A stretch of 13,463 nt of DNA, from the NCBI GenBank assembly GCA_031372065.1, contig JANMKN010000033.1:1-13463 (forward strand). Direction: 5' to 3'. Positions 4,537 to 11,379 of the stretch are shown one piece after another (positions within the stretch are counted from its first letter, which is position 1; each line of letters begins with the position of its first letter). The DNA is from Abditibacteriaceae bacterium (GTDB taxonomy: Bacteria; Armatimonadota; Abditibacteriia; Abditibacteriales; Abditibacteriaceae). The notes below the pieces were generated by a model. It ran no database searches. It was given only the letters and a program-made list of their open reading frames with translations, and was not told the origin of the DNA. A program made the position numbers and the translations under genes.

Positions 4537-6690
4537 TTAACCAGAAGCGTCATCGTTGAGAATTGTGCCAGTGCCGCGTGCTTTGGCTATAGTGGCATTG
4601 GTCGCGCCCGACAGCAGCACATAAAATAGTTCGTCCTGCTCAACCTGCGTATCACCGTTGATGCTCACACTGAAGGTATTGTTAATTTGGCCGGGGCCGA
4701 AAGTCAGCGTGCCGCTTTTGGCAACGTAGTCGCTGCCGGATTGCGCGGTGCCGTTGGCGGTGGCGTAATTCACCGTAATCGTCTGTCCGCTGATGGCCGA
4801 TAAGCTGACAATAAAGACTATGTTGCGCGCTCCGCTATTGCCTTCGGTGGCGTTCACATCGGTGATGAGCAAGGCCGGAGCGCGGTCATCGTTGAGAATG
4901 GTGCCGATGGCTTGATTATCCACAATCGAAGCATTGACCGCGCCACTAAGATTGACCTTGAAGGTTTCGTCGGCTTCATCAAGCGTGTCGCCGTTGATGA
5001 GAACGCGCGCTAAGGCGACGGTTTGGCCGGTGGCGAAAGCGATTTGTGTAGTAGGAACGGCATCATAATCGTCGCTCGATTTTGCGGTGCCGCTGGTGTC
5101 GGTGTTGTAGCTGACTTTGACTAACTTGCCGCTGGGCGATGACAAATGCAAACGCAAAACAGCGGTGCGCTGTCCGCTATTACCTTCGCCCATGCTTAGG
5201 TCTTCGATGGTAATAGAAGGCGCGGAGTCATCATCGTTAATGGTGCCGACGCCGCGCCCTCGTGTGATGACGGAGTTGACCGGCGAAGACAATAAAACGT
5301 AAAAATTTTCCGCGTCTTCGTTTAGCGTATCGCCAACCACTGGCACGCTAAATGTCTTGCTGTTTTCTCCGGGCGCAAAAGTAAGAGTTTTGCCGCCGCT
5401 GGTGTAATCGAATGGTGCCCGCGCAGTGCCATTGGCGGGAATGGCACTCACCGTCACGGATTGTCCGCTGATAGCCGACAAAGTGAGGGTAAAAGTTGCG
5501 TCCGCAGTGCCGGGTGCCCCGTTAGAGGGCGGGTTTCCCTCAACGACAGAAACATCGTTGATGGAAATTAAAGGCGCGTTATCATCGTCAAGAATTGTGC
5601 CGATGCCTTGTGCCGACGCACTTAACGTGGCATTAGTCGCTTGACCCAGATTAACGAAGAACGTCTCGTTACTTTCATCCAAAGCATCGCCCTGAATTGG
5701 GATGGTAATGAGGCCAGAGGCTTGATTTGCAGGAATCGTCAAGGTGCCGGAGGCAGCGGTGTAATCGGCGGGTTGTTTGGCGGTGCCATCGGCGGTGGCA
5801 TATTTCACGGTGATAACTTTCCCGCTGACGATGCTCGGCGTGACGGCGAAAGAGAGATTTTTCTGGCCGCTATTGCCTTCGCTTATGGAAACGTTATTGA
5901 TGGATAGCGTTGGCGCGACATCATCGTCGGTAATCGTGCCGATGCCCTGCGACTTGTTAATGAAGGCGTTAACAGGCGCGGACAAATTGACGAAAAAGGT
6001 TTCAGTGGCTTCGTCCGACGCATCGCCCACAATGGGAACCGTGATACTCTGCGCGGTTTCGCCCGGTGCGAAAGTAAGAGTGCCGCTGGCCGAGGTGTAA
6101 TCCGCAGGCTGCGTGGCTGTGCCGTCCGCTGTCGCATAATTCACCGTGATGCTGGCCGGACTGGTGCCGGAAAGCGTTACGTTAAACGTGGCGTTGGTGG
6201 TGCCGTTGCCTTCCACTAAGTTCACGTTGCCAATGGAAATCAACGGGGCGTCATCGTCCACAATCGTGCCGGTGGCCGATGACCCGATGAAACCAAAAGT
6301 CGAAGGCGTTAATTTCAGTGTGAAAGTCTCGTTTCCTTCGGTCGTGGTATCGCCCTTGATGGGCACGCTAACAGTTGCGTGGGTGCCGGTCATGAAAGTC
6401 ACGCTGCCAGATGTTGAGGTGTAATCGGTTCCAGCCGTCGCTGTGACATCGTTAGTCGTATAATCCACCGTCACAGAGCGGTCGAAAGTTCCATCAAAGG
6501 AACTGGGCGGATAGCCAGACACGGTGAAGTTGAGGTTGACTGTGCCGCTGTTGCTTTCGGTGACATAAGGATTATTGGCATAAACGCGGCCCAGTCTGCT
6601 AAAAGCCTGAGCGGGCGAAGCCGCACTCAGAAACAGCACGATGGCGCAAATGGTCATCAGGTGCTTTACGACAAATTTCAGTGGTTTCAT
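4537..6690 (-). CDS. Secreted Calx-beta repeat protein (six Calx-beta-like domains), 717 aa
   Basis: Signal peptide ending AQA. Six units of the form [V/I]xEGNSG...V.Y.T.DGTA....DY...SGTLTF.PG......V.I.GD...E..ETF.V.L......G.GTI.DDD. GAGGAG SD. Confidence 0.92.
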   Translation of the reverse strand: MKPLKFVVKHLMTICAIVLFLSAASPAQAFSRLGRVYANNPYVTESNSGTVNLNFTVSGYPPSSFDGTFDRSVTVDYTTNDVTATAGTDYTSTSGSVTFMTGTHATVSVPIKGDTTTEGNETFTLKLTPSTFGFIGSSATGTIVDDDAPLISIGNVNLVEGNGTTNATFNVTLSGTSPASITVNYATADGTATQPADYTSASGTLTFAPGETAQSITVPIVGDASDEATETFFVNLSAPVNAFINKSQGIGTITDDDVAPTLSINNVSISEGNSGQKNLSFAVTPSIVSGKVITVKYATADGTAKQPADYTAASGTLTIPANQASGLITIPIQGDALDESNETFFVNLGQATNATLSASAQGIGTILDDDNAPLISINDVSVVEGNPPSNGAPGTADATFTLTLSAISGQSVTVSAIPANGTARAPFDYTSGGKTLTFAPGENSKTFSVPVVGDTLNEDAENFYVLLSSPVNSVITRGRGVGTINDDDSAPSITIEDLSMGEGNSGQRTAVLRLHLSSPSGKLVKVSYNTDTSGTAKSSDDYDAVPTTQIAFATGQTVALARVLINGDTLDEADETFKVNLSGAVNASIVDNQAIGTILNDDRAPALLITDVNATEGNSGARNIVFIVSLSAISGQTITVNYATANGTAQSGSDYVAKSGTLTFGPGQINNTFSVSINGDTQVEQDELFYVLLSGATNATIAKARGTGTILNDDASG

Positions 6691-6804: not shown

Positions 6805-8091
6805 TTACCGCAAACGGAACAGGCTTTTGCGAGAGTTTTTGCCGTATTTGCTGTTGCTGGGGGTGGCACCGTTAAAGGCTTCGTCCCAGATAAAATTCGG
6901 CAGATCCAACAAGCGTGTGGCGACATCGGTGACGGCTTTGTAGCTGAACCACTGATCGCTTTCGCCGTTGACTCCGGGGCCGATGTTGGTCACCGCATAC
7001 GAAGCCAAATTGCGCGTCGGCTGAATGATAAGTTGCGAGAAGAATGTGCCATCCGAACCGTCATGCATGATGGTGCGCACACCCTTATAGGTGCGCTCAG
7101 CCCAGCCGAAGGAGTAACCGATGCGAAAATCAGGTAACGAGGGAATGGGCACCGGAATCGGCGTGTGCAATTTGGTCATAGTCGCGGCGCTGACGATGGT
7201 TTTTTGTCCAAGTAGGCCGCGCAGGTGCATTTGCGCATAGCGGGCGAACTCCGGCGTGCTGATGCATTCGTCGCCCGTCGGTTCAAAGAGGTGATCTAAC
7301 CCATCGAGCGTGAAGCCTTGTGCAAACGGTGCTGTTGCGATTTCAACGTGGCCGCGCGGTTGGTTGGGGCCATTATCCCGTGGACTACCCTGATAAACCC
7401 GACTTCCCAATGGCGCAAAGACTTCGCGTTGGAGCAGCGTAAAGTAATCCGTGTTGGTGGCGCGCTCCATCATGGCACCCGCGATGATAAATCCGGCATT
7501 AGAATAAAGGAAATCGCCGAGCGCGCCACTGGGCGCGAGTTTCAGCACATTGCGTGCGTATTTGACGCGTTGCTCGCGCAGCGTGCCAGAATAAGGGTAG
7601 CCGCCGATAATCGCTCTATCGTCGTCTGATTGATGCGGTATCAGCCCCGCGCGATGGTTGAGCAGTTGCTCTAAAGTGACAGTTCGATACTGCGCATTCA
7701 TGATGGAAGCAAATTCGGGAAAAAGCTCCACAATGGTGGTGTCGTAGCGAATCCTGCCTTTCTCCACTAATCGCCCCGCCAGCGTGCCTGTGACGGATTT
7801 CTGGATTGAGCCAATCGTGAACAAATCTCTATCCGTTACCTTGTCGTTCTTGCCGATTTCGCGGATGCCAAGCGTTGCGGTTTTTATAGTGCCGCTATTA
7901 ATCAGCGCGCCTGACAAAGCAGGCACTTTACTGGCCTTCAAAATTTCATCCACGATGGCGTGCACATCGGTTCCGGCAGGCAAAGCCGGGCCTCCGCTGC
8001 CGCCATTGCAGCCCGCTAAATTTAACAGGCCAAGGGCCGCTGGCGCAGCGGCTAATTTCAAAAAATCGCGTCGTTTCAGTTCGTAAGTCAT
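6805..8091 (-). CDS. Serine hydrolase, beta-lactamase class C / PBP-like family; predicted Tat-exported lipoprotein
   Basis: KRRDFLK twin-arginine motif, LAGC lipobox, FTIGSIQKS (SxxK), LLNHRAGL, FLYSNAG (YxN), HDGSDG. GAAAGGA SD. Confidence 0.9.
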   Translation of the reverse strand: MTYELKRRDFLKLAAAPAALGLLNLAGCNGGSGGPALPAGTDVHAIVDEILKASKVPALSGALINSGTIKTATLGIREIGKNDKVTDRDLFTIGSIQKSVTGTLAGRLVEKGRIRYDTTIVELFPEFASIMNAQYRTVTLEQLLNHRAGLIPHQSDDDRAIIGGYPYSGTLREQRVKYARNVLKLAPSGALGDFLYSNAGFIIAGAMMERATNTDYFTLLQREVFAPLGSRVYQGSPRDNGPNQPRGHVEIATAPFAQGFTLDGLDHLFEPTGDECISTPEFARYAQMHLRGLLGQKTIVSAATMTKLHTPIPVPIPSLPDFRIGYSFGWAERTYKGVRTIMHDGSDGTFFSQLIIQPTRNLASYAVTNIGPGVNGESDQWFSYKAVTDVATRLLDLPNFIWDEAFNGATPSNSKYGKNSRKSLFRLR

Positions 8092-8180
8092 TGTCGTTTC
8101 CTTTCAAACAAGATTTGCTTTAGCGATGATGCGGCGAACGGTGTGCGAATCTGCATTGTTGACTTTTGCAAGAGGTCTAA

Positions 8181-8204
8181 TGTTGTCTCCTGTGTTGTCT
8201 CCTG
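8181..8204. repeat. Exact 12-bp tandem duplication (TGTTGTCTCCTG)x2, intergenic
   Basis: Read directly at 8181-8192 and 8193-8204. Confidence 0.85.
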
Positions 8205-8285
8205 TCCCACACCTTGTAATGGGGAAAATTTGAATTCCATCAACAACATGGCGTTCGTAGAAAGTAATTGCGTTCACTCCGCCAT

Positions 8286-8981
8286 TTACGGCTTGGTTGT
8301 CACGCTGACGACATCGCTCCACTCGCCGACTTGGTCGTCTTTGAGCAAATAGCGCAGGCGGTATTCGCGCACTTCGGGTTGGCCCGCCGTGGCATTGTCG
8401 CGGGTGTCCACAAAGGGGCTGAAATGGTCAATGCCCAGCGCTGTCCACGTTGCCGAGCCGGGCGCGCGGCCTTCGATGACAACGCCATCAAAGGCGCCTT
8501 TGACCCATTTCAGTCGCACTTCGCCAGAAGGCAAGGCGGTGGCGGTGAACGTCGGTTTAGCCGTGGTCGGATCAATTTCCTCGTCGGTGCCGATGATCCA
8601 TAAATCGGTGCCGATGGCTTCGGTGTAGTTCGCGGCGCTCTTTATGCGTTGCACCAAAGCACGCGTGCGCGGCCAAATGCCAGCCGGCACCGTTGTCGGG
8701 GCCGCTGAAAGCGTCGGCAGCGCAGGCGGCGCGCCCGTAGGGGTGCCAATCGGCCCGTTGGCGATCAAGTTTTTGTAAGTCCTTTGCGCCTGCGCCGCCG
8801 TGGTGACCGCAGACACGCGTTGCGTCACCAGATGGATGAACATCGCACCATCGCCCAAGGCGACGGCGATTTCTGCGGCGGTCAGGTCGAGCGCGGTTTG
8901 ATAGCCGGTTATTTTGGGCATGAAGTTCTGCCACCAATTCACGCGCTCGCCATCGGATTTGGGAAGGTAATTCTTGAGCAT
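8286..8981 (-). CDS. Hypothetical protein, 231 aa: N-terminal helical region plus C-terminal FN3/Ig-like beta domain, no signal peptide
   Basis: Protein-like ORF: YLPKSDGERVNWWQNF...RIKSAANYTEAIGTDLWIIG, then alternating beta pattern VRLKWVKG..DGVVIEGR.....W..LGID..SPFVDTR.....EVREYRLRYL..DDQVGEWSDVVSVT. The fold is inferred from the pattern only. Confidence 0.85.
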   Translation of the reverse strand: MLKNYLPKSDGERVNWWQNFMPKITGYQTALDLTAAEIAVALGDGAMFIHLVTQRVSAVTTAAQAQRTYKNLIANGPIGTPTGAPPALPTLSAAPTTVPAGIWPRTRALVQRIKSAANYTEAIGTDLWIIGTDEEIDPTTAKPTFTATALPSGEVRLKWVKGAFDGVVIEGRAPGSATWTALGIDHFSPFVDTRDNATAGQPEVREYRLRYLLKDDQVGEWSDVVSVTTKP

Positions 8982-9526
8982 AATCGTTTGTTTCCAATCA
9001 AAGGTCGGGAAAAGTAGGTCGTTATCCGCTGCGATAAATCACGGCACAGCAGGAGCAAGTCGTGGGGCGGCTCCGCTAAGTGACTCAGCGGAGCCGCCGG
9101 GCAGGTCGGCGGGCGCGCCGAATCGTTTGGCGGACGCGCTAAGTGATTGGGCGGGGCCGCCAGACTACTCGGCGGGGCTGCCAGACTACTCGGCGGGGCC
9201 GCCAGACTGTTCGGCGCGCCTGCCAGACTGTTCGGCGGAGCCGCCAGACCGTTCGGCGGGGCCGCCAGACTACTGGGCGGCGCCGCCCAATCACTTAGCG
9301 CGTCCGACAATTCATTCGGCGGCGCGATGGGCAGGTCGAGGGAACGGCAGATTAAAGGTGGAACGGAGAAATTGTGAGTTGGGATTCGTTTTGGCGCTGT
9401 TTTGGCGTCGGCGCAGTCGTAGCGTTTATTCACTGACGGCTTCTCAGAGCTACCAAACGTGAAAAAGCGGGCCGCAGTATAGGGCCGAAAAGAGAATACG
9501 TTGAAAAATAAGCCCTGAATACGCAT
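8939..9526 (-). CDS. Doubtful ORF through the repeat array, encoding (AAPPxSL)n heptads
   Basis: Open frame with several synonymous-looking unit differences (GCG/GCA, GCC/GCT, CCG/CCC/CCA). Against it: no SD, 43-nt overlap with the downstream gene, and GC-rich repeats are often open by chance. Confidence 0.25.
   Translation of the reverse strand: MRIQGLFFNVFSFRPYTAARFFTFGSSEKPSVNKRYDCADAKTAPKRIPTHNFSVPPLICRSLDLPIAPPNELSDALSDWAAPPSSLAAPPNGLAAPPNSLAGAPNSLAAPPSSLAAPPSSLAAPPNHLARPPNDSARPPTCPAAPLSHLAEPPHDLLLLCRDLSQRITTYFSRPLIGNKRLCSRITFPNPMASA
9066..9338. repeat. Tandem array of about 13 x 21-bp units: quasi-palindromic 12-bp box (GGCGG-NN-CCGCC) + 9-bp variable spacer
   Basis: Boxes start at 9066, 9087, 9108, 9129, 9150, 9171, 9192, 9213, 9234, 9255, 9276, 9297, 9318 (exact 21-bp period; last unit degenerate). 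Core unit GGCGGGGCCGCC-AGACTACTC. Confidence 0.92.
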
Positions 9527-9678
9527 AGCGATACCCAGAAATAAACAAGAACTGACACAAAATAAAATTGGCTACTTCGATTTTTACAAAAAATAATAAA
9601 ATGTCAAGATGCTTGATTCCTAAGAAACGACAGGGGCTTGCTATTCGGAAACTTGGGTAACGCTCTACTTATGCCAAA

Positions 9679-9707
9679 TTGCGAAATCGTTTGGCTTGAC
9701 TTAAAAT
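9679..9707 (+). promoter_or_regulatory. Sigma70-type promoter for tRNA-Gly
   Basis: TTGCGA (9679-9684), 17-bp spacer, TAAAAT (9702-9707), 20 nt upstream of the tRNA. Confidence 0.6.
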
Positions 9708-9727
9708 GAATAAGCGCCAGCCCAGAC

Positions 9728-9800
9728 GCGGAAGTAGCTCAGTTGGCAGAGCGCGAGCTTCCCAAGCTTGAGGTCGCGGGTTCGACCCCCGTCTTCCGCT
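9728..9800 (+). tRNA. tRNA-Gly (anticodon CCC), CCA not encoded
   Basis: Cloverleaf: acceptor GCGGAAG/CTTCCGC, D arm GCTC/GAGC, anticodon stem CGAGC/GCTTG with loop TT-CCC-AA (anticodon 9761-9763), T arm GCGGG-TTCGACC-CCCGT, discriminator T. Confidence 0.97.
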
Positions 9801-9826
9801 TTAGTCGTTCTATAGCAGTGCCCCTA

Positions 9827-9864
9827 ACGGCGCCCCGACTTTCCCTCCTCAGTCGGGGCGCCGT
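9827..9864 (+). terminator. Strong hairpin downstream of the tRNA (terminator-like, weak U tract)
   Basis: ACGGCGCCCCGACT-TTCCCTCCTC-AGTCGGGGCGCCGT is a perfect 14-bp stem, followed by GTCATTT. Confidence 0.6.
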
Positions 9865-9984
9865 GTCATTTGAATCAGACGATTTCCCGAAAAAGGCGCC
9901 GCAGCTTGCAACAAGACTGCCAAATAGTGAAAATAAATAAGGTTGTTTTGACAGGTCGTTTTCTGAAAGTTGAGCGTGTTAATT

Positions 9985-11379
9985 ATGAGGGCAAGTGCCG
10001 GGCAGCGCGCTTATCAGCGCGAGGAAATGGGCCTCAAGATGCGGCGCCCGCCGGAAGAATACGTTGGGCTATTGTCGCAAACCGAGCAGGAATTTCGCTC
10101 TTACATTCATTCGTTTGAGGATTCGCCACTGTTCGACAAGCTGGTCAAAGACGGCATGATCTCCAAAGTGCGTCTGCGTGGCAAGATTCCGCGCGGCAAA
10201 TATGAGGAGTTCATGGATGAGCAGCTTTTCCAGTTTTTCCGCGATTATAAAATCGAAAGTTTCGACGGTTGGGAGCAGGATTTCCTTTCGCCGCACGCGT
10301 TAGAGCGCGTTGAGGAAATCGCCGCCAAATACCATGCGCCCGCCGGAATTTTGACCAAGCATTTGCGTTATTTGCGCTCATCGGGGCGCGGCACCATTCC
10401 CGATTGGATGCTTTCGCGGCCCTCGGCGCCTTCCGATGGCCCCGGCTTTGACCGCATCGAAAATACCGCTGCGGATTCGACGGTTGACCTCAGCGAAATC
10501 ATCGAAACCACGCGCGATTTCGTGGAGCGTTATAGTGTCAGCGAGCAAGATTTTTTAGATATGGTGCTCGGCGGCGATTCCACGCCCGATGAATTGTCCG
10601 AAAAATTCGGTTGCTCGTTGGCCGAAGCGCAGGAAGTTCTCGAAGCGGCTGACCGCGTTTATATGGCGGACACCTACGAAGCCTCCAGCGCCGCGCCCGC
10701 GCAACACGCCAGAGCGGGCGCCAGCGCCGCGCAACAAAGCGAAGAAGCAGTGGCGTTTGTGCAGGTTTTGGACGGGCAATTAGCCATTCAATTTCATCAG
10801 GAATCGGTTTATGCGCAGCGTTATCGCATCAAGCCCAACGCGCTCAAAGAATTAAAAACCGATCCCAATTTGCCCGCATTGGCGCGCGATGTTTTATCGC
10901 GGGCGCGCTTTATTAATCAACGCTTGTCGGCGCTGTCGCGGCTGATTATGACGCTTTGTTCGCAGCAGATGGAATACCTCGGCACCGGCGACATGAAGCA
11001 ATTGAAGCCTCTGGCGCAAGCCGAACTCGCGCGGCAATTGGGTGAGCATCCCTCCACGGTTTCACGCCTGATTCGCAACAAAAACATAGAAACGCCTTAT
11101 GGAGTCATTCCTCTTTTGTTTTTGTGCCAAAGCAAAACCGATGTCGTGGCGCGGTTAATTGCGCAGTTTCCCAAACTGACCGATTATCAGGTCGTTATTC
11201 GCCTGCGCGAAGATTTCGACTGCCAAATCGCGCGGCGCACGGTGGCCTATCATCGCGGCAAGCGTTTGCGCCGCAACAAAGTGCATAAACCGCGCGATGG
11301 CGCCGCAAACCCAGCAAATGAGCCGAAAAAAAGCGCGCCGCGTGGTCGGCCTCGCAAGAACGCTCAAAAAGAATCATAA
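9985..11379 (+). CDS. rpoN: Divergent RNA polymerase sigma-54 (RpoN)-like factor, about 464 aa
   Basis: C-terminal LKPLAQAELARQLGEHPSTVSRLIRNKNIETPYGVIPL (sigma-54 HTH), LTDYQV and ARRTVAYHR (RpoN box variant). N-terminal LLSQTEQEFRSYIHSFEDSPLF resembles the region I end (LLQL...EL...LE.NPLL). First ATG at 9985; the track starts at TTG 9970. Confidence 0.8.
   Translation: MRASAGQRAYQREEMGLKMRRPPEEYVGLLSQTEQEFRSYIHSFEDSPLFDKLVKDGMISKVRLRGKIPRGKYEEFMDEQLFQFFRDYKIESFDGWEQDFLSPHALERVEEIAAKYHAPAGILTKHLRYLRSSGRGTIPDWMLSRPSAPSDGPGFDRIENTAADSTVDLSEIIETTRDFVERYSVSEQDFLDMVLGGDSTPDELSEKFGCSLAEAQEVLEAADRVYMADTYEASSAAPAQHARAGASAAQQSEEAVAFVQVLDGQLAIQFHQESVYAQRYRIKPNALKELKTDPNLPALARDVLSRARFINQRLSALSRLIMTLCSQQMEYLGTGDMKQLKPLAQAELARQLGEHPSTVSRLIRNKNIETPYGVIPLLFLCQSKTDVVARLIAQFPKLTDYQVVIRLREDFDCQIARRTVAYHRGKRLRRNKVHKPRDGAANPANEPKKSAPRGRPRKNAQKES

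Follow-up and report, generated by a model that had tools for sequence, protein, structure and literature searches.

In the genome of an Abditibacteriaceae bacterium, a tandem array of quasi-palindromic 21-bp units directly precedes a gene for a protein that combines a helical domain with a fibronectin type III (FN3) fold, and this pairing of array and gene is general, since it recurs upstream of paralogues in the same genome and of most homologues sampled elsewhere, with the period conserved. The arrays show palindromy and a sub-period of 10.5 bp and carry no codon signal, the module has been duplicated as a whole, and gene-less array copies occur at new intergenic sites. The explanation that we favour, with slightly less than even confidence, is that the array forms a non-coding, helically phased docking track of double-stranded DNA, which the adjacent protein family would likely bind and read through its geometry. 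The window designates here the whole stretch of 13,463 nucleotides that was analysed (contig JANMKN010000033.1).

By direct measurement, the array occupies positions 9066 to 9338, without strand assignment, and comprises 13 units at an exact 21-bp period, each made of a quasi-palindromic 12-bp box and 9 further bp. The 12 units quoted in the original prediction, which was made from the sequence alone, were recovered letter for letter from position 9066, on the strand opposite to the 231-aa gene; the degenerate 13th unit that it announced corresponds to 9318-9338, and the distance from the array to the ATG (8981), given as about 85 bp, was measured at 84 bp. The palindromic character attributed to the boxes is found in 10 of the 13 units (8 to 12 of 12 bases self-complementary), but not in units 4, 12 and 13 (4 to 6 of 12), and the palindromy of the unit profile reaches a z of 3.3. 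Units 1 and 2 are perfect inverse counterparts over 12 bp. Direct comparison also revealed a perfect 24-bp inverted match within the array (9131-9154 with 9283-9306, spanning 9131-9306, no strand), likely left by an in-phase inversion or conversion event. The match at lag 21 is 0.66, against 0.33 at lag 20 and 0.27 at lag 22, and the best lag never exceeded 0.44 in 2000 shuffles of the bases; TRF reported period 21 at 9150-9287 with a score of 178. Contigs from public DNA runs over 8646-9311 and 9283-9433, all from one study and possibly from the source sample, present zero differing letters and no visible array-length variants; since they agree with the array, an assembly artefact is unlikely. 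No RNA run was listed as a holder among the public sequencing runs checked for the window sequence. An Rfam scan of positions 8000-10000 retrieved no CRISPR family, a tRNA being the sole match to pass.

The gene (8286-8981, minus strand) encodes P0001, a protein of 231 aa with zero matches in Pfam, NCBIfam, PHROGs and PADLOC, whose profile had no match among PDB sequences either. Its predicted helical and FN3-like architecture was borne out by a structure model based on 138 sequences (pLDDT 95.9; four helices, one of them of 41 residues, and a beta domain) and by fold searches. The N-terminal helical domain (residues 1-132, positions 8586-8981, minus strand; helices at 10-27, 35-75, 102-115 and 121-126) retains a pLDDT of 95.1 when modelled alone and has no clear structural relative: Foldseek at E 0.001 found no match in the PDB or in viral models, the best VIA match is a designed bundle (Z 6.2, rmsd 5.0, 93 aligned) where nothing stands out, and the Atlas returned no named cluster for the domain. 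The C-terminal part (residues ~135-231, positions 8289-8579, minus strand) matches the fibronectin type III fold (Z 11.8, rmsd 2.0, 87 aligned). With a dN/dS of 0.17 against the 84% identical paralogue of the C201 module described below, the gene is under purifying selection. No signal peptide was evident by eye. The family comprises 1875 clusters at 50% identity (E up to 0.001); the Atlas clusters nearest to P0001 are unnamed, with Verrucomicrobiota and Acidobacteriota commonest, and no relatives were found in viral contigs (three patterns) or plasmids. A search for longer fused forms gave only four matches, of 232-243 aa, which is weak evidence, and a Pfam scan of the 138 homologues yielded nothing except two weak unrelated matches. 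One protein of at least 636 aa (L089, G561:C398) contains two P0001-type helical domains, with no clear array upstream.

The coupling is complete among the seven paralogues found by tblastn in the own genome, which all have an upstream array with a best period of 21 or 42 and a match of 0.71-0.99, versus none of seven in the downstream control (match at most 0.45). Among outside homologues, Bacteroidota included, an array was present upstream in 74 of 99 and downstream in 4 of 96. This count retained loci with at least 400 bp upstream, took a match of at least 0.6 as an array and dropped exact duplicates and matches lacking the N-terminus; it covers the fetched loci, a part of all matches, with several loci per genome, so that the counts are not independent. 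The sources were 41 relatives, 301 genomes of the own phylum, 301 Bacteroidota-group genomes, two further genomes and 48 metagenome loci. The best period of the 74 arrays was 42 (29 arrays), 21 (27), 63 (8), 62 (3), 43 and 44 (2 each) or 41, 64 and 70 (1 each), that is 21, 42 or 63 in 64 arrays, 41-44, 62 or 64 in nine and 70 in one. The family itself is patchy, with 24 of the 301 own-phylum genomes and 12 of the 301 Bacteroidota-group genomes, the latter figure including weak FN3-only matches. The original prediction had considered array and gene as one module, held the impression that homologues in other phyla adjoin such repeats and proposed to look for periodicity upstream of them; periods near 21, 42 or 63 with unrelated unit sequences were indeed recovered there. 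Two damaged loci were also observed: a congener homologue broken near codon 40 by an apparent insertion sequence, with a short period-21 stretch remaining upstream of the original start (L024, G003:C114), and a family gene of the own genome (designated G000) in three pieces with its array retained (G000:C233:477-1050).

The idea that unit length is conserved while sequence drifts proved right both in the own genome and outside. Paralogue pairs with 83-91% protein identity have 11-13 of 21 consensus bases in common, and unrelated pairs about 10; the array sequence is private to each locus, and the unit sequence turns over faster than the protein. Within 24 of 148 arrays, a 30-bp inverted match of at least 87% was detected.

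The array and the gene are part of a larger module (8286-9612, minus strand). Homology with the paralogous module of contig C201 begins at the promoter (9612) and stops at the stop codon (8286), with identities of 79-89% in the leader, 76-93% in the gene and 44-56% in the diverged array region, so that promoter, leader, array and gene were duplicated as a unit and the array was rewritten afterwards. The predicted promoter (9580-9607, minus strand) fits 10/12 of a sigma70-like hexamer consensus, and 11/12 in the C201 module. Between promoter and array lies the leader (9339-9579, minus strand), which contains at 9383-9482 half of a dispersed inverted-repeat element; the whole element, of about 150 bp, is REPIN-like and separate from the arrays, with 42 profile matches at about 30 sites in the own genome, three of them near period-21 arrays. 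An open frame of 195 codons (8939-9526, minus strand) runs across leader and array and is also open in the C201 module; with a dN/dS of 0.55 (69 codons) and no ribosome-binding site seen, it is probably not a gene.

Around the module, a tRNA-Gly(CCC) (9728-9800, plus strand) is divergently oriented, with a GC-rich hairpin behind it (about 9830-9864). Integration targeted to this tRNA was considered and rejected, the tRNA pointing away with its 5' end toward the module. Further on, positions 9970-11379 encode a 469-aa protein in which a sigma-54 DNA-binding domain alone was recognised and which is kept in congeners; since congener synteny upstream of this gene differs, an empty site for the window module is not definable. 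On the other side, positions 6805-8091 encode a serine hydrolase of the beta-lactamase family in which a TAT signal is weakly matched; the gene lies on the same strand 195 bp downstream of the module, and its co-transcription with the module is possible because no terminator was called in between. A 717-aa protein with six Calx-beta repeats is encoded at 4537-6690.

A scan of the own genome for periods 9 to 45 gave 203 matches at period 21 and at most 11 at each of the others, except 41 and 42, which are largely recounts of period-21 arrays. After merging and removal of period-7 simple repeats (perfect many-copy 7-bp repeats in contigs C4, C69, C320, C351, C357 and C405), 184 arrays remained, about 30 per Mb, in 108 sequence families. 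Arrays preceding small helical or helical and FN3 genes, from several families of 121-329 aa, number 32, a selected number since they were chosen by eye. A less biased check, tblastn with these 32, restricted to loci that include the N-terminal part and have 200 bp or more upstream, added 13 loci, nine of which had an array at 0.6 or more (counted by eye), two of the nine with a best period of 40/20 or 22/44. Profile comparison of P0001 with the other array-linked families revealed no link (best probability 27%); they are taken as kin on the basis of a helix pattern recognised by eye. Among array-linked proteins, those of 121-122 aa in contigs C50, C51 and C168 (L010, L011) correspond to the helical part alone and end in strongly basic tails. 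Another, helical with an fn3 part (L009:743-1363, contig C118), resembles over residues 21-203 the 'minor tail protein' phrog_6977 (E 1.6e-06), a match that the fn3 part may drive.

It was originally foreseen that arrays scattered beside unrelated genes would refute the coupled system in favour of a generic repeat family. This holds in part: about 150 of the 184 arrays have no family gene found beside them, and most of these are gene-less copies lying in intergenic gaps, as REP elements do; but many of them are sequence relatives of gene-linked arrays, so that they enlarge the system, which does not come down to one generic REP family. In one locus (L188:~995-1230, contig C253), such an orphan array starts within the final codons of the gene upstream, to which it provides the stop codon; this suggests insertion at short homology.

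Several features of the units point to DNA geometry. Across 162 arrays, the power of column variability peaks at a period of 10.5 (0.205), versus 0.081 at period 3, and palindromy exceeds a z of 1.64 in 71 of the 167 arrays of this genome and in 24 of the 44 from outside. The conserved, paired positions lie 3 to 8 from the axis, i.e., in half-sites of about 6 bp, one per turn and alternately inverted. On a docking track, the adjacent protein or a paralogue would assemble cooperatively, guided less by base sequence than by spacing and twofold symmetry: the half-sites would follow one face of the helix and carry stacked protein rods, joined through two twofold contacts. By standard geometry the 41-residue helix is about 60 Å long and 21 bp about 71 Å, which agrees only loosely. 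Once occupied, the track would regulate the promoter of its own module. Homogenisation of each array by tandem and inverted recombination would make its sequence drift, and array-only copies may spread like REP elements, supplying extra docking sites. Basic residues K23, K70, R105, R112, K114, K161 and R208, kept in 80-96% of the 138 homologues over both domains, also argue for the docking track. Other observations speak against it. Fold searches with the whole model and with the helical domain returned no resemblance to any DNA-binding fold, and the family is about neutral (mean net charge +0.5 for the helical domain and -1.9 for FN3). No array is detectable in 25 of the 99 outside homologues, 96 of the 167 own arrays are not clearly palindromic, and outside arrays show a weaker 10.5-bp peak (0.16, against 0.15 at period 21). 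In a genome with 13 family matches, a single 42-bp array of non-coding appearance was found in the 400 kb sampled. Finally, promoters vary in their side of the array, and no link emerged between the phase of the array and the -35 box in 14 loci (Rayleigh p 0.48).

The gene-less copies also fit another explanation, unlikely in our opinion but the best placed of the alternatives, in which the array would belong to the non-autonomous mobile repeats and be copied or duplicated with the help of the protein, in the way that RAYT serves REPINs; the 21-bp rule would then stem from the copying step and not from docking. Orphans group with gene-linked arrays, 15 of the 42 multi-member sequence families containing one. 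They often retain the first-to-last unit order of their parent (by eye), and the flanks have nothing in common in 28 of 29 parent/orphan pairs, with scores at or near background. In three operon gaps carrying orphans, before hemC-, murE- and fmt-like genes (names assigned by reading translations), the congeners lack an array, their gap being either empty or occupied by other repeats or genes; the L189 orphan site was left out of these empty sites, its flanks being split between two contigs of G002. There are no recurrent gene neighbours (168 of 182 unique), and the neighbours are found in either orientation. The placement of orphans is REP-like: among 103, according to crude gene calls, 11 lie between divergent genes (depleted) and 26 between convergent genes (enriched; chi-square p 0.003), so that most orphans are not promoter operators, a point that also weighs against the docking track. 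On the contrary, the protein has no HUH or other invariant catalytic set, the alignment of 138 homologues having no invariant column and no conserved His column, and Y119, aromatic in 98% of the P0001 family, is not evident by eye in the other array-linked families. No reverse transcriptase was found in the own genome, which is 94% complete, and its seven Y1_Tnp genes could be the movers instead, although only one of them (C343:2635-3704) lies near an array, an orphan about 400 bp away. Since these seven genes are present and no reverse transcriptase was found, it is possible that arrays move by single-strand copying by a host transposase, or by plain recombination.

A host protein, such as a nucleoid-associated protein or a transcription factor, might also read the phased array, the gene being a passenger tuned by it. 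We consider this improbable, even if several array-linked families without detectable profile similarity to P0001 display the same period and the P0001-family protein is not basic, because the coupling extends across phyla with different hosts and each locus has its private array sequence. Moreover, a 400-kb sample of a congener without family or PQLLE matches contained no period-21 array, where about 12 would be expected at the density of the own genome, and a similar sample of a Bacteroidota carrier contained five.

That the array acts as RNA, as a folded 5' leader or a non-coding RNA bound by the protein, has slender chances. The promoter consensus is located upstream of the array in seven loci, including those of the window, C201, C368, C378 and C190, and the 594-nt leader of the window locus folds with a z of -5.3, as expected of any palindromic tandem. 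Outside arrays exhibit a slight local compensation (0.567 observed, 0.550 expected, 29/44, p 0.01), but own arrays have none (13/29, p 0.44; 79/138, p 0.11), and G-U pairs are not favoured over A-C on the gene strand (107 vs 116; 181 vs 177). Furthermore, in 15 of 32 loci the promoter consensus lies between array and ATG, against a background of 0.22 per kb and 2 of 32 loci for the opposite strand, so that the prediction often leaves the array outside the transcript. The structured leader suggested originally is not supported as a general rule.

A heptad-repeat peptide encoded by the array, as an upstream frame or an antisense partner of the long helix, is very improbable in spite of a frame of 195-200 codons in the window and C201 loci, of more open frames than in column shuffles (2.48 vs 2.04 of 6) and of the coiled-coil look of some frames by eye, since 162 arrays present no synonymous (z -0.2), conservative (BLOSUM z -0.27) or heptad a/d (z 0.0) excess against column shuffles and favour neither strand (15 antisense, 14 sense), and since periods of 41, 43, 44, 62 and 64 occur outside and 20/40 and 22/44 in the own genome, 10 of the 74 outside best periods not being multiples of 3.

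Returning to the docking track, a bolder version of it, rather unlikely as a whole, would make the array-linked proteins a rod-shaped helical superfamily with a new fold, which polymerises on DNA by a two-turn ruler, without need of a fixed sequence, and not only reads its own arrays but also propagates them; a private 21-bp address would belong to each gene and be copied to new sites, with about a hundred address families in the one genome. If such address reading were true, it would represent a new kind of self-spreading DNA-protein system without a recognised transposase or DNA-binding domain. Whatever the mechanism, the arrays constitute a large unexplained class of repeats (184 loci in this genome). 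In usual protein-DNA systems the sequence of the site remains in step with the protein, whereas here spacing and often symmetry are kept across phyla and protein families and sequence is replaced faster. If the protein is the reader, it would be a geometry-reading DNA polymer, usable as a programmable DNA ruler or scaffold.

No description of the array-gene pair was found in the literature searched, a body of papers mostly excluding subscription articles and supplements, where one could exist. In CRISPR arrays, identical repeats alternate regularly with spacers that are each unique and at least about 30 bp long. The present arrays are alike in their regular spacing, palindromic repeats and short variable parts, but their 9-bp 'spacers' are repeated and self-complementary and their boxes vary; no cas genes were seen in the window. 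PQLLE (NF052641) is a family with a name only, and the literature searched yielded no relevant match for it. An array-linked helical protein of 234 aa (contig C318) is a member with 113 bits for a cut-off of 80, whereas P0001 itself does not match.

The REPIN-RAYT system is similar, in the accessible text of its descriptions, by its palindromic intergenic repeats, which comprise several families in one genome, each associated with a gene in the vicinity, and many gene-less copies (PMC3337134; PMC3116915); here also, sequence families join the arrays of partner genes to dispersed intergenic copies. However, REPINs are described there as inverted doublets with a spacer, and the present arrays run head to tail at period 21 on one side of the gene. 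The REP/REPIN partner RAYT belongs, according to the same accessible text, to the IS200-like transposases and bears HUH and Y motifs (PMC3337134), whereas the partner found here has no HUH/Y transposase domain, is modelled as helical and FN3, and occurs as recent duplicates (83-91% identical); nor does the sequence of the repeats here follow that of the protein.

BrickBuilt of Porphyromonas gingivalis is presented, in the portion of the source at hand, as a minisatellite MITE with one 23-nt sequence, a shared leader, a tail and inverted ends (PMC4596501). It likewise forms intergenic tandem arrays with many dispersed copies in one genome and promoter elements; the present system differs from that description by its 108 families of period 21, its linked gene family and its mostly unshared flanks (PMC4596501).

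Similarly, partition centromeres and iterons offer tandem palindromic sites near whole helical turns beside the gene of their presumed binder, as in sopC of F with its 12 repeats of 43 bp, each containing a 16-bp inverted repeat in the part of the source available (PMC3177203). As compared with that part, the present arrays are chromosomal and multi-copy with no plasmid match, the module has no ParA/ParM ATPase or Rep gene as neighbour (its neighbours in the window are the beta-lactamase-family hydrolase and tRNA-Gly), the fold searches gave P0001 no HTH or RHH match, and the site sequence is not conserved with the protein (PMC3177203). As far as these partial sources describe them, REPIN-RAYT, BrickBuilt and partition centromeres each have tested defining features that the array-gene module lacks; the module is most like REPIN-RAYT in its genome layout and like a partition centromere in its geometry.
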